From IMG/VR virus record IMGVR_UViG_2541047747_000003: a stretch of DNA of 54,039 nucleotides. The stretch is one strand, 5' to 3'. Positions 5,130 through 51,965 of this stretch are shown one piece after another. Below the pieces are notes generated by a model. The model saw only the letters and a program-made list of their open reading frames with translations. It was not told the origin of the DNA and made no database searches. The number at the start of each line of letters is the position of its first letter. Position 1 is the stretch's first letter. A program made the translations under genes and the position numbers. The stretch is from a virus (Duplodnaviria > Heunggongvirae > Uroviricota > Caudoviricetes).

Positions 5130-5147
5130 TATGGCATTACCTCCGGT

Positions 5148-6266
5148 TTACAAAATGGAATATTCAGGGTAATAAACAAAGCGCCCGATTTCCCCGTGAT
5201 CAGGACTGTAAATTATTACCGCCGCCAGACGCCGCGACCGCCAGCCGCCATTCGTTGAATAAGCGTCTTTGCCCGCTAACGTGCCGTGATACTCAACAAC
5301 GCCTAACGATGATTCAATCAACCGTTGGTGGTGCCAGTGCCCGCAATGAGCATAAACCGCCGCAGACTTACCGAAATCTTCCCGCCAGTCAGAGACGCAG
5401 GCAGACAACAAATTTTCTGGTTTTTTGATGGTGTGTCCGTGGTGGTAAGCAAGGAATGTTTTGCCGTACTGTGTGTGGTGTACGATAGCAGGTGACACGT
5501 CAACCGTTACGCGCGGTTCATCTTCGTAAAAAGCCGCCAGCGCAGCACGTAGCCAAATCATCCCCGACTGATCGTGATTACCTGATAATACCTGGATTTC
5601 GATTTCTTTGTGGTTTAACAACATCTTTCCTACAGCACGGCGGACTGACCGGATCGCCACATAAACAAGTTTTGCGTAGCGTGAATCGCAATCAAGTACG
5701 TGATTGCTTGATGGCGTCACTGGCAACAGCCCATCAGTGTGAAGAACATCCCCACCGAGAAGCAATACAGCTTTTTCAGACATCGGCGCTGCGCCTACCG
5801 CGTAGTCAAAGAAATCATTTAGCACGCGTTCAGCGATCCCGGTGTCGTAGCTCTCACCGCATTCAGCTTTATGAGCAAGCGCCCCGATATGCAGATCGAA
5901 TACCGGATAAAGGGCCAGGCTTTTTTGGAAATCAATTTCCGGCACTGGCACGGCCTCCGCGCGTGGCATGTCTTCCGTGAAAGCATCGCAAGCCGCTTGC
6001 ATTAGCCTTTCCATTTCATCGCGATCACGGGCTGTTTTAATCCAGCGCATAATCACATTGCCATCCTTATCGACGAGCAATGACTCACCATTGACGCCAA
6101 AGCCCGGCGCGCGACGCGTGGATATTAAACCGCGTTTCGCCAACCGTGCGCCCAGGCGTTCGACGTTGCGTTTTGCCATTCCATATTCTTCTGCTATTTG
6201 CTTGTAAGTTTTCCCCTTGTTGTACTCGGCGATCAGTTCCTCATCGCTGATCTTTCTTTGTGACAT
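5148..6266 (-). CDS. HTH domain fused to calcineurin-like metallophosphoesterase
   Basis: 372 aa; N-terminal HTH (KTYKQIAEEYGMAKRNVERL); metallophosphatase motifs GDVLH, GNHD, HHGH, GHWHH. Confidence 0.7.
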   Translation of the reverse strand: MSQRKISDEELIAEYNKGKTYKQIAEEYGMAKRNVERLGARLAKRGLISTRRAPGFGVNGESLLVDKDGNVIMRWIKTARDRDEMERLMQAACDAFTEDMPRAEAVPVPEIDFQKSLALYPVFDLHIGALAHKAECGESYDTGIAERVLNDFFDYAVGAAPMSEKAVLLLGGDVLHTDGLLPVTPSSNHVLDCDSRYAKLVYVAIRSVRRAVGKMLLNHKEIEIQVLSGNHDQSGMIWLRAALAAFYEDEPRVTVDVSPAIVHHTQYGKTFLAYHHGHTIKKPENLLSACVSDWREDFGKSAAVYAHCGHWHHQRLIESSLGVVEYHGTLAGKDAYSTNGGWRSRRLAAVIIYSPDHGEIGRFVYYPEYSIL

Positions 6267-6443
6267 AACGTTATTACCTCCGGTTCGCGGAATGAGTATT
6301 TATTCATAAATAACTAATTTTTATTAACATGGATTTCACGGTGTCAAAAAATGCCAGTAGGGTTAATCAACAACTTATGCAAATTGAAATAACCACTTAA
6401 TGAATAACCAATCGTATACATTACGGTTTACAATTTGTATACA

Positions 6444-7499
6444 TTAGGATATAGCACAACGGAAAAACTTGCACCCCAAATAATCTTCAATGCGTTTTTG
6501 TCTTATCGCATCGCTTTTTACTTGCCGTTTGTGATGTGACTCATCAATTTCTACAGCAACGTTATTCACAGGATCGTAGCCATCAATAAAATACTTATTG
6601 CCAGCAACATCAACAGGATATTGCCTTATTAATTTAACTCCTTTTAGTTTTTCATACATAGTTAAGCCAGCATGTTCATAACGCTTCCTAATCATATTTT
6701 TACAATTATCTCTCATTTCTGATAATTTCGAGTCGCACTCCTTTTTTATTTCTTCAATTACATTTTTATCGCTTTTTAATTCAATAAAGTTTTCTATGTC
6801 GTTATAATTCCCGCATTCAAAATTATTATTAAGACCTTTATTTTCACCCCATGCATGATACTTTTCTGCCATCTTATCGCTAATATATCTTTCATACCCA
6901 TAATTTGTTTTAACTATAAAATATTCAATATTTAAATCAATGGTAAACTCATCATTATTGAGGTGTTCAGTTAAAAACGCATCTGGATCTGCAATATCGC
7001 TTGAATGGAACAACCTTACCCATAGTTTTTCTATTGATACTCCGCGAGTGACGAACAACCATTTTTTGTACTTTTCAGCATCTTCTTTTGACACATACAC
7101 AGAACATCGCCCAGGAGTATCACTCGTTTCAACATAATTGTTACACCATAAAATATAATTATAAGCATAAGGACTATCTTTTTTGGTGTTATTTGAATAT
7201 TTATTAAAGATATCTTGCAAGTCAACTAATCCACAAGATTCAATAACTGGCTTAACCCATTTTTCATTATATTCATAATGTCTATATTTACCAGGTGTAA
7301 CGAATCTAATAAACGTTATGGGTGTGATATACACATCATCACCATCAACAATAAAATCCTTGTATTCCTCAAATCCGTAAAGATCAGAGTATTTAACAAA
7401 TGATTTAAGTCTATCAATTTCAAGTTCAGAAACCAGATTATTAACAGACAGTAATTGCGTGTCCTTACAATTGAGTTTCATATGATAAGTAGCAATCAT
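6444..7499 (-). CDS. Low-GC accessory protein with C-terminal Vsr/DUF559-like (PD-(D/E)xK-type) nuclease motif
   Basis: Start chosen at MIATYHM with an AGGAGG RBS; visibly AT-rich against neighbours; C-terminal VAVEIDESHH...SD..R...I...LGCKFFR matches the E.DG..H...D..R...L..G..VLRF pattern. Confidence 0.55.
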   Translation of the reverse strand: MIATYHMKLNCKDTQLLSVNNLVSELEIDRLKSFVKYSDLYGFEEYKDFIVDGDDVYITPITFIRFVTPGKYRHYEYNEKWVKPVIESCGLVDLQDIFNKYSNNTKKDSPYAYNYILWCNNYVETSDTPGRCSVYVSKEDAEKYKKWLFVTRGVSIEKLWVRLFHSSDIADPDAFLTEHLNNDEFTIDLNIEYFIVKTNYGYERYISDKMAEKYHAWGENKGLNNNFECGNYNDIENFIELKSDKNVIEEIKKECDSKLSEMRDNCKNMIRKRYEHAGLTMYEKLKGVKLIRQYPVDVAGNKYFIDGYDPVNNVAVEIDESHHKRQVKSDAIRQKRIEDYLGCKFFRCAIS

Positions 7500-7650
7500 A
7501 TATACCTCCTTTATTAATTTTCTATATAACGCCTCAGACGAGCTACAACGCAAAAATCCCACCGCGTAACCCGTTTACAGGTTGCAGTGTCTTATTGCGC
7601 TAGAGGCGCTATCAGGTGGCTAATTTTCGATTTACAGAATGGTAGGTAGG

Positions 7651-51483: not shown

Positions 51484-51512
51484 AAAAACGGGGCATAAGC
51501 CCCGTTTTTTTA
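51483..51512. terminator. Bidirectional Rho-independent terminator
   Basis: AAAAAAA-CGGGGC-ATAA-GCCCCG-TTTTTTT, between convergent genes. Confidence 0.75.
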
Positions 51513-51522
51513 TGCATTGTTT

Positions 51523-51768
51523 TTATTTTTTACACCCATCATTTACACCAGAAAAATGGATAGGTAAATTACATTCACTGTCAATAATTTTACCTTGTAG
51601 TTGTTTTTCTTTCCATGAGTCAGTATTGAAATAACTCGAACGTTGGTTATCAAGGCCAGTATCACCATATTGAGCAGTGCCAGCATCACTCTTATCTGTC
51701 GAATTTACAGAAGCAAAAGCACCAAAAGACAGAGCTGATAAGATGCAAGCAACAATTAGTTTTTTCAT
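51523..51768 (-). CDS. Small secreted protein (accessory gene)
   Basis: Start chosen at MKKLIVACILSALSFGAFA (signal peptide with AFA-S cleavage site); RBS AAGGTGA; convergent with J. Confidence 0.5.
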   Translation of the reverse strand: MKKLIVACILSALSFGAFASVNSTDKSDAGTAQYGDTGLDNQRSSYFNTDSWKEKQLQGKIIDSECNLPIHFSGVNDGCKK

Positions 51769-51965
51769 TGTATTCACCTTACTGTTTGTTTTACTGTCAT
51801 TTGTTGTTCGTGATGATCCACCCATCCGATGAGCAAATCACCGCAGAAGCTATCATTTCGTATGTTGATATAGATCAAAAAATACATTATGTATAAGTCC
51901 AAAGTGTAACACAGATTACAAAATGGTAGAATTGTTTAGTTAATTAACAAAACGGAGTTATTGCG

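Follow-up and report, generated by a model that had tools for sequence, protein, structure and literature searches.

In the present study, we analysed a short motif that recurs at gene boundaries of an Escherichia coli prophage of the mEp021 group (mEpimmI), and we consider it probable, from sequence comparison, that the lambda-CI-type repressor of the prophage (Rep021 family, encoded at 9505-10152) uses this motif as its operator. The DNA analysed, called the window here, is a stretch of 54,039 nucleotides. The mEpimmI phages have been reported to be as common as lambdoid phages in human gut E. coli, and Rep021 confers immunity group-wide; the paper on the mEp021 group names no operator, and that of the mEpimmI repressor was not previously defined (PMC11893012). 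A literature search for the motif sequence gave nothing relevant.

The motif and its enrichment

The motif GTTTACAAAATGG was matched 10 times in the window with at most one mismatch, at 5146, 9419, 10262, 17746, 23633 and 51914 and, on the minus strand, at 14409, 17814, 42880 and 44473. The expectation was 0.26 matches and the maximum among 100 shuffled sequences was 3, which bears out the view of the initial annotation that the motif is repeated and non-random. Its core, ACAAAATGG, is present 14 times in the window against about 0.5 expected. The 13-mer had zero matches in 583 kb of lambda-like phage tail loci and zero in 50 kb of host chromosome. The copies listed earlier are all real, but those at 23662 (minus), 39872, 39901 (minus) and 42948 are weaker, with 2-3 mismatches, the one at 44534 is a variant, and three positions had to be corrected (42870 to 42880, 10263 to 10262 and 17813 to 17814). 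Further copies, at 5124, 6416/6428, 7632, 10289, 10944, 14383, 44508 and 51882, had been overlooked, and a copy at 42489 falls within coding sequence and lacks conservation among relatives. Another enriched k-mer, GTTGATGGCG, is dispersed through the coding sequence of both strands and seems to reflect codon usage.

When the register of GTTTACAAAATGG is shifted by 2 bases, the unit becomes a 13-bp pseudo-palindrome, WTMCA-WWW-TGKAW, or written out (T/A)T(A/C)CA-WWW-TG(G/T)A(A/T), in which the middle is also given as N3. The strict symmetric consensus has 11 sites in the window against 0.28 expected (maximum 2 in 100 shuffles) and the relaxed one has 23 against 2.66; counting variants, there are about 25 sites across about 14 intergenic gaps. 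Full palindromes of the ATACA-N3-TGTAT type account for 7 copies. The commonest form is asymmetric, with an ACA half-site opposite a CCA half-site and 4 of 5 positions matching; this asymmetry is conserved, the TGG is not random, and a symmetric dimer leaves it unexplained. In same-strand gaps, 5 of the 7 asymmetric copies share an orientation, CCA to ACA toward the downstream gene; the other two are each the upstream site of a pair. In mEp021 all 11 syntenic copies are intergenic according to its GenBank annotation. The "inverted pairs" described earlier do reflect a paired arrangement, but the pairs are adjacent operator-like sites, and six of them in the window are spaced by 24-25 bp. Reading them as RNA or DNA hairpins or as terminators was rejected on account of the A/T-rich stems and of the lack of compensatory changes between the two arms in relatives; in a terminator scan none of the inverted pairs scored as a stem-loop. 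Short leaderless ORFs starting from an ATG in the motif were also rejected, the frames being 2-10 codons long and inconsistent.

The repressor and the immunity region

The following features of the immunity region were identified:

9505-10152, plus strand: gene of the lambda-CI-type repressor (Rep021 family; domains HTH_3 and Peptidase_S24), the protein proposed to bind the motif
9421-9433, plus strand: putative operator TTACAAAATGGAA, placed over the leftward early promoter at its spacer and -10 (the 9419 copy of the initial annotation)
9456-9468, minus strand: weak second putative operator, proximal to cI, TCACAAAACGTGC in the window and ATACATTTTGTGA in most relatives
10264-10276, plus strand: putative operator ATACAAAATGGAT, directly adjoining the -35 of the rightward early promoter
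10289-10301: operator-like site TTACGGGGCGTAT at the same rightward promoter, over its spacer and -10

The repressor matched the Pfam domains HTH_3 (1.5e-12) and Peptidase_S24 (5.8e-19), and its closest solved homologue is lambda CI (3BDN, E = 1.4e-20, residues 15-208); it is a full-length homologue of lambda CI. Its identity within the mEpimmI group is 90-100%. The predicted leftward early promoter, on the minus strand, consists of TTGATC at 9445-9440, a spacer of 16 nt and TAAACT at 9423-9418, and nutL boxA follows about 70 nt downstream at 9341-9329. The core positions of the 9421 site are 99% conserved in relatives. The 9456 site is centred at about -43 from the cI start codon and is the inverted arm of repeat I1. 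On the other side of the gene, the 10264 site is unchanged in 27 of 31 distinct relatives and abuts the -35 of the rightward early promoter (TTGACT-17-TATATT, 10276-10304), as the initial annotation had noticed for its copy at this strong promoter. The 10289 site begins 25 bp after the 10264 site, and in relatives its outer half-sites are conserved while the centre is variable.

We then compared repressors with a similar recognition helix from Erwinia phage Midgardsormr38, Vibrio phage H8, Stx2 phage 1717 and two IMG/VR loci (L047 and L049), assigning the operators of these relatives from position and repetition. WTACA-N3-YGTAW sites lie between cro and cI, the OR position, in all four other lineages; for L047/L049 OR was the only region compared, and the 9421 site is homologous in position to their first operator. 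In Midgardsormr38, H8 and 1717 the sites are also found at OL, ahead of the N-like gene or immediately preceding a boxA-like sequence. Midgardsormr38, whose recognition helix is ITKGAVSHWLNARREP where the window has ITKGGLSHWLNGRREP (45% identity), carries clusters at OL (36193, 36218, 36247) and OR (38110, 38136, 38168) and a single strict-pattern match outside them in 50 kb. Adjacent operators are spaced by 25 and 26 bp in this phage, 25 bp in OL of 1717, 25 bp in OL of H8 and 27 bp in L047. The earlier statement that the motif matches no lambda-type operator is therefore wrong, since sites of the same type occupy operator positions in four other phage lineages. The counts rest on full matches, because a threshold of 9 of 10 positions for the operator model was dominated by noise (57 observed, 39 expected). 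When the inverted pair was searched for in viral contigs, the form with a 16-nt spacer was found in mEpimmI relatives only; the other matches were unrelated chance hairpins, and one such contig (L183) has no proteins in common with the window.

These comparisons also bear on the possibility that the main ligand is another phage protein, for example an activator or an early regulator of the Cro type (a candidate being the small HTH protein encoded at 8942-9199 by the first gene of the leftward operon), by which promoters could be turned down or up in lytic growth. In lambda-type switches the operators of CI are shared by Cro; a second ligand could explain the conserved asymmetry (the TGG half), and copies centred near -43 at three promoters hold a typical activator position. 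However, the site tracks the CI recognition helix over five lineages with differing leftward genes, and the 8942-9199 protein has no Pfam domain. We consider this explanation of the main ligand unlikely.

Dispersed sites and predicted promoters

Outside the immunity region there are about 20 sites, in about a dozen other intergenic regions:

5124-5160, plus strand: putative operator pair, ATCCATTATGGCA at 5124-5136 and TTACAAAATGGAA at 5148-5160, spaced by 24 bp
6416-6440: two overlapping operator-like sites, ATACATTACGGTT and TTACAATTTGTAT, directly past the stop of ORF 6444-7562
7632-7644, plus strand: one operator-like site, TTACAGAATGGTA, between genes of the leftward operon, with only moderate conservation
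10944-10956: single near-palindromic putative operator ATACAAAATGTAA, which overlaps the N-like gene at its stop codon
14383-14419, minus strand: putative operator pair, the perfect palindrome ATACATTTTGTAT at 14383-14395 and TTACAAAACGGAT at 14407-14419 on the minus strand (earlier given as the 14409 copy)
17748-17824: three sites around nutR2, at 17748-17760 (plus), 17778-17790 (TCACATAATGGCG, plus) and 17812-17824 (minus)
23635-23672: putative operator pair flanking a -35, at 23635-23647 (plus) and 23660-23672 (minus), spaced by 25 bp
39874-39911: putative operator pair, spaced by 25 bp, with the minus-strand lipoprotein cassette on one side and the tape-measure gene on the other
42878-42962: two sites upstream of the minor-tail gene, where transcription is divergent, at 42878-42890 (minus) and 42950-42962
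44471-44545: three sites upstream of tail gene L, likewise in a divergent region, at 44471-44483 (minus), 44508-44520 and 44533-44545
51882-51957: three sites, the palindrome ATACATTATGTAT at 51882-51894, then 51916-51928 (plus) and 51945-51957 (plus), in the gap between the minus-strand secreted-protein gene and the next tail gene

The 5124/5148 pair brackets the start of the helicase gene together with its ribosome-binding site, and its 5148 member is 99% conserved. The copy at 5146 had been placed over the first codons of an HTH-metallophosphoesterase gene; it actually covers the last codons and TAA stop of the minus-strand ORF 5148-6266, in which Pfam found neither domain. The sites at 5148, 6428, 7632 and 10944 are single sites between genes within operons, and the 10944 site has the same sequence in 26 of 30 distinct relatives. 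The two members of the 14383/14407 pair are 24 bp apart, and the 44508 and 44533 sites 25 bp.

A TAnnnT located 16-18 bp downstream of a TTGNNN gave a full fit at four copies (9421, 14407, 17812 and 39874). The predicted promoter at 14407 has TTGCGA at 14395-14400, 16 nt and TAAACT at 14417-14422; the 17812 copy contributes the -10 TATACT (17822-17827) to a -35 TTGTTT at 17800-17805, and the boxA of nutR2, TGCTCTTTAAAAA, starts at 17842. On the minus strand, the promoter predicted at the 39874 pair has TTTACT at 39899-39894, 17 nt and TATAAG at 39876-39871. The 23660 copy has TTGNNN at the correct distance and a -10 lacking the final T (TTGTTT at 23648-23653, 17 nt, TATAAA at 23671-23676, with TG at -15/-14). 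At the remaining copies the -35 is absent or the start site is impossible, and several of the promoter assignments depend on weak -35 hexamers. The earlier statement that the motif matches no sigma70 promoter is not upheld, as the WTACA half-site forms the predicted -10 (TAWACT) in at least five copies. Read forward as a -35 (TTTACA), the motif has no copy with a -10 at 16-18 bp downstream.

Several of these gaps also carry CRP-like sites. TGTGA-N6-TCACA with at most one mismatch occurs 6 times against 1.8 expected, and 5 of the 6 are within operator-bearing gaps. Four of the sites are strong:

14362-14377: CRP-like site CGTGATTGCGATCACA
17767-17782: CRP-like site
23615-23630: CRP-like site
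44554-44569: CRP-like site

Those at 14362, 17767 and 23615 are centred 39.5 bp upstream of the promoter-proximal operator, and thereby at about -60.5 to -61.5 of the predicted promoters. In relatives, the CRP-like half-sites are conserved and the centre is variable.

It could be supposed from this geometry that the motif is a promoter core only, that is, a conserved spacer plus -10 (CCATTTTG-TAWACT) for host RNA polymerase, and that no repressor is involved. Five copies stand in a fixed register with a -35-like TTGNNN 8 nt upstream, three of these five have the strong CRP-like site 39.5 bp upstream, and one copy is directly upstream of nutR2. We regard this as unlikely, because sigma-70 does not specify CCATTTT at -20 to -14, palindromic copies exist (14383, 6428, 51882), and so do copies without promoter geometry (5148, 10944). 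Forward copies abut a -35 and form no -10, the same sequence type is found at operator positions in relatives, and at 14407 the operator is invariant among relatives whereas the adjoining -10 bases outside it vary, including the T at -7.

Conservation among the relatives

The motif is kept at matching positions in at least 40 relatives. In a comparison using 20-36 distinct relatives, conservation at most intergenic sites is 95-99% in the operator columns and 83-93% in the 25 bp on either side. The relatives share one repressor and one immunity group (PMC11893012), which fits one conserved operator. At 39874, right halves of the TGG type and the TGTAT type interchange among relatives, and from this mutual replacement the two types of half appear equivalent. 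The 39874/39899 pair as a whole is conserved, the cassette to its left differs, and changes in its two arms are not compensatory.

The position of this pair upstream of the tape-measure gene, exactly at the junction of conserved backbone and highly variable cassette, might suggest that the copies are conserved linkers at mosaic joints which aid cassette exchange through recombination, and minus-strand cassettes are bordered by several copies. We find this very unlikely, since copies also occur at non-mosaic early promoters and in the immunity region, just 13 bp are conserved, with a dyad and a fixed 24-25 bp pairing that recombination would not need, and the opposite border of each cassette has a terminator and no copy. 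A host-factor site (CRP, Fis, IHF, DnaA or similar) can be dismissed as extremely improbable: WTACA does resemble the CRP half-site TCACA, and true CRP-like palindromes adjoin several copies, but neither the host DNA nor the lambda-like phage DNA used as controls contains the motif, the Escherichia, Erwinia and Vibrio phages in which it is found have one repressor lineage in common, and in a comparison by eye with consensus sequences it fits neither IHF, Fis or the DnaA box nor TyrR, OmpR, PhoP, ArcA, sigma-54 or the sigma-32 -10. Of the binders that the initial annotation had proposed, a regulatory protein agrees with the sequence evidence, while a nucleoid protein or recombinase has nothing to support it.

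Discussion

Binding of the CI-type repressor is what we infer from the enrichment, conservation, positions and spacing of the sites and from their homology to operator-position sites in the relatives. Repressor dimers would occupy sites singly or, in the manner of lambda CI, cooperatively in pairs spaced by 24-25 bp. A Cro-like antagonist may use the operator as well. Because the sites cover the -10 or bracket the -35/-10 of the promoters flanking the repressor gene, RNA polymerase would be blocked at both, and this would be the basis of immunity. Many of the dispersed sites overlap the -10 (TAWACT, provided by the WTACA half-site) of predicted secondary promoters, and those placed under the same control would be the promoters directly upstream of nutR2, upstream of the tape-measure gene and of the minus-strand accessory cassettes. 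The sites between genes inside the early operons may act as transcription roadblocks, and the 5124/5148 pair, which has no usable promoter geometry, is a candidate for this. The many copies at gene boundaries genome-wide suggest that one protein silences many separate promoters. Binding of CI at every site would also repress the accessory cassettes, although such genes are usually presumed to be expressed in the lysogen, and this would count against the reading. As a tentative and somewhat doubtful extension, we propose a network of about 25 operators under a presumably dimeric CI-type repressor, in which intergenic sites would stop elongation and CRP-dependent promoters of the nutR2 region, the tail genes and the cassettes would be gated by CI.

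In several respects the arrangement is that of the OR/OL operators of lambda, 434 and P22: a CI-family repressor (HTH plus S24) with pseudo-dyad sites, sites over the -10/-35 of early promoters on both sides of cI, and neighbouring sites at the spacing of cooperative pairs, about 25 bp. The nearest operators by sequence are those inferred for Midgardsormr38, H8 and 1717, which have the WTACA half-site in common with the window. Lambda-type operators, however, number three per immunity promoter and are confined to the OL/OR clusters, whereas the window has one or two per promoter and about 20 sites elsewhere, and its dominant form is asymmetric (ACA and CCA halves), unlike theirs.

Phage P1 C1 is an immunity repressor acting over many scattered promoters; it binds a 17-bp asymmetric site, some of its operators are inverted pairs, and P1 is a plasmid prophage. 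One immunity repressor, many dispersed promoters and some paired operators are common to C1 and the window, but C1 is unrelated in sequence, its site is the 17-bp asymmetric one and its regulatory layout is different.

The operator/stoperator system of gp71 of L5, a cluster A mycobacteriophage, has more than 20 copies of a 13-bp repressor site genome-wide (PMC9283540). The window shares with it 13-bp sites in promoters and short intergenic gaps in more than 20 copies, and silencing of the whole prophage by one repressor is also plausible here. The L5-type repressor, in contrast, is a monomer with two DNA-binding domains and a truly asymmetric site, while the window has a CI-type, presumably dimeric repressor and pseudo-palindromes that are often paired. 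The orientation of L5 sites is strictly tied to transcription, but in the window the orientation bias is weak. To our knowledge, stoperators have so far come only from monomeric mycobacteriophage repressors.

Conclusion

In the present study, we provide for mEpimmI a concrete candidate operator sequence together with a map of about 25 sites. If the reading is true, a classical CI-type repressor would have extended its reach from two clusters of operators to the entire genome. The view of immunity, prophage silencing, accessory gene expression and the unusual third nut site of the group would then be revised, and prophage promoters would be linked to cAMP-CRP. Should the genome-wide network also hold, immunity would amount to whole-genome silencing instead of a two-promoter switch. 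The mEpimmI phages would also offer a genetically tractable Gram-negative system for repressor roadblocks.

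RESULTS

The dispersed 12-13 bp motif reported in the initial annotation proved to be real. At no more than one mismatch, GTTTACAAAATGG occurred 10 times in the window against 0.26 expected, and the weaker copies were also recovered. The control DNA, lambda-like tail loci (583 kb) and host chromosome (50 kb), gave 0 matches. Its core, ACAAAATGG, was the top A/T-containing enriched word (14 copies; about 0.5 expected). Read from the third base, the motif is (T/A)TACA-AAA-TGG(A/C)(A/T), a 13-bp unit whose starts are used below as site names. The symmetric consensus WTMCA-WWW-TGKAW gave 11 strict sites (0.28 expected; at most 2 in 100 shuffles) and 23 relaxed ones (2.66 expected), and none in the same lambda-like loci or host DNA. 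Two positions had to be corrected: the copy placed at 42870 lies at 42880, and that at 5146, described as standing at an ORF start, overlaps the stop codon of ORF 5148-6266. This ORF, called HTH-metallophosphoesterase in the initial annotation, had no Pfam match. Its neighbour, ORF 6444-7562, has weak C-terminal matches to the DUF559 and PvuRts1I-like endonuclease families. Relatives differ in this stretch of the leftward operon, and the 6428 region was present in only six distinct sequences.

By megablast, the window belongs to the mEp021 group (mEpimmI) of temperate E. coli siphophages, with about 86% identity to mEp010, mEp021, mEp044 and MagusPhagus; its immunity region is 99.7% identical to that of the E. 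coli 2017C-4173W12 prophage. The first base falls within the integrase gene, and replication functions are encoded by minus-strand genes up to about 9.3 kb. The rightward early operon (N-like gene, recombination genes, methylases and Q) follows the repressor gene, and the late genes downstream are broken up by minus-strand accessory cassettes. Judged by the genes they carry, the "left" operon of the group, with its replication genes, corresponds to the lambda PR operon, and the "right" operon, which holds the N-like and recombination genes, is the counterpart of the PL operon. The previous study of the group reported the repressor Rep021, the N-like Gp17 and three nut sites, and named neither an operator nor a dispersed motif (PMC11893012).

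In three IMG/VR loci (L047-L049) the repressor is 38% identical overall and 48% in the HTH region, and RGTATACA occurs three times between its gene and a divergent cro-like gene. Further repressor homologues were collected by tblastn. The recognition helix is ITKGAVSHWLNARREP in Erwinia phage Midgardsormr38 and ITKGGLSHWLNGRREP in the window. The sites in other homologues were as follows.

Midgardsormr38, between cro and cI: TATACATTTCGTAT, TATACAAAATGTGT, AATACAGATTGTAT
Midgardsormr38, upstream of boxA and the N-like gene: TATACAAAACGTAT, AATACATTTTGTAT
Vibrio phage H8, same two places: TTACATTTCGTAA, TTACATAATGGCG, TTACAAATTGTAA, TTACACAATGG
Stx2 phage 1717: ATACAATATGTAC at OR; GTACATATCGTAC over the -10 of PL

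Because Midgardsormr38, H8, 1717 and L047-L049 share this form, the family site can be written WTACA-N3-YGTAW, and the window motif is this site with one half altered from ACA to CCA. Full palindromes of the ancestral type also occur in the window (e.g. ATACATTTTGTAT at 14383), together with a single CCA/CCA site at 44533, and at 39874 the ACA/CCA and palindromic forms replace each other among relatives. In the whole Midgardsormr38 genome the sites cluster at OL (36193, 36218, 36247) and OR (38110, 38136, 38168), with only one strict match elsewhere, which makes the dispersal a peculiarity of the mEpimmI group.

The immunity region of the window contains the following features.

9329-9341, minus: nutL boxA
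9421-9433: putative operator covering the spacer and -10 of the predicted leftward early promoter (minus strand; TTGATC-16-TAAACT, the first hexamer being TTGACC in some relatives)
9456-9468: second, weaker site (ATACATTTTGTGA in most relatives), with the start codon of cI about 43 bp from its centre
9505-10152: repressor gene, between the leftward replication genes and the rightward early operon
10264-10276: putative operator adjoining the -35 of the predicted rightward early promoter (TTGACT-17-TATATT)
10289-10301: TTACGGGGCGTAT, over the -10 of that promoter
10347-10360, plus: nutR1 boxA

The nutL boxA lies about 70 nt downstream of the leftward promoter, and the geometry in L047 is alike (TTGATT-16-TATACT within the first repeat). 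cI may be leaderless, with TAGGGT 6 nt before its ATG; this spacing (9486-9507) matches TATAAT-6-ATG in L047/L049, and no Shine-Dalgarno sequence is evident. A spacing of 24-25 bp was found in six pairs (5124/5148, 10264/10289, 14383/14407, 23635/23660, 39874/39899 and 44508/44533), and neighbouring putative operators in relatives are 25-27 bp apart. Homology to lambda CI extends over the full length of the window repressor and takes in the C-terminal domain, which in lambda mediates pairwise cooperativity.

In five copies (9421, 14407, 17812, 23660, 39874) the WTACA half-site supplies a predicted -10, TAWACT, and a TTGNNN hexamer stands 8 nt before CCATTTTG; a promoter role is inferred for them. 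Forward-oriented copies adjoin the -35 at three predicted promoters (10264, 23635, 39899). The copies at 5148/5124, 6416/6428, 7632 and 10944 lie between early-operon genes without usable promoter geometry and are candidate roadblocks. Other elements of the window were as follows.

14362-14377, 17767-17782, 23615-23630, 44554-44569: strong CRP-like palindromes
9464-9479, 39917-39932: weaker CRP-like palindromes
17800-17854: stretch with a predicted promoter (TTGTTT-16-TATACT) directly upstream of the nutR2 boxA
17842-17854, plus: nutR2 boxA, TGCTCTTTAAAAA

The pattern TGTGA-N6-TCACA with at most one mismatch matched six times in the window (1.8 expected), five of them in operator-bearing gaps. 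At three of the five promoter-overlapping copies (14407, 17812, 23660) a strong palindrome is centred 39.5 bp upstream (14362, 17767, 23615), about -60.5 to -61.5 from the predicted start, the classical class I position. The site at 44554-44569 is about 63 bp upstream of another predicted promoter, on the minus strand (TTGATC-17-TATATT). The half-sites are kept in relatives and the centres vary. This arrangement suggests that several prophage promoters are under cAMP-CRP control.

The predicted start of the 17812 promoter is 6-8 nt before the nutR2 boxA, which would explain the group's published third nut site; besides polymerase that reads through from the first early promoter, the site may thus act on transcription from a promoter of its own. 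The nutL and nutR2 boxA are an identical 13-mer, similar to the rrn-type boxA.

At or near the minus-strand cassette ends farthest from the cassette promoters lie strong hairpins rich in G+C (38053-38068, 38758-38774, 42300-42322, 43532-43552, 51478-51515), which scored as terminators on one strand or on both. Each cassette therefore seemingly ends in a terminator on one side and is bordered on the other by a divergent promoter region that bears operators. The 17-bp sequence ATCATTGTGACAATGAT (42901-42917) is a perfect palindrome and shares bases with a consensus TATAAT (42897-42902). It lies in the divergent region adjoining a two-gene minus-strand cassette, one gene of which is ParE-toxin-like in a relative's annotation, and has the look of an autoregulatory operator in its own right.

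DISCUSSION

The most economical reading is that the copies are operators at which the CI-type repressor binds, and that they have spread far outside the immunity region. In experiments mEpimmI phages formed one immunity group, which fits this reading (PMC11893012). The initial annotation saw no fit to a lambda-type operator, whereas by repressor family, position, spacing and homology the motif is of that kind and would work in like manner; it differs in dispersal and asymmetry. Binding of a different phage ligand to the same sites is a less economical reading. A pure promoter element would suit the five copies that supply a -10; at 14407 the operator is invariant in relatives and the adjoining -10 bases vary.

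A recombination linker between cassettes is an unlikely reading. Copies stand at matching positions in 44 early-region and 41 late-region IMG/VR relatives irrespective of the intervening cassettes, and the pair upstream of the tape-measure gene is kept beside completely different ones; changes in one arm of this pair are not compensated in the other, which speaks against a hairpin. In mEp021, 11 of 11 syntenic copies lie between annotated genes. Compared over 20-36 distinct relatives, most intergenic sites show 95-99% conservation in the 13 operator columns and 83-93% in the 25 bp to either side. The only copy inside a gene, an exact consensus ATACAAAATGGAT (42487-42499, minus strand), falls within the coding region of a small minus-strand gene (42382-42636); relatives do not keep it, so it is probably a chance or recent occurrence. 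A host-factor site, the remaining rival, is unlikely for a motif with no match in the host DNA searched.

Dispersed sites are also known from the C1 regulon of P1; the dispersal is similar and the window repressor is unrelated to C1. The operator/stoperator network of L5-type mycobacteriophages resembles the dispersal in the window, and their repressor is likewise unrelated (PMC9283540). We speculate that the CCA half, in a conserved ACA/CCA asymmetry, avoids making a -10 in the opposite direction. Overall, the motif is a genuine and conserved regulatory element that can now be explained for the most part, and through it CI may either repress or activate the accessory cassettes.
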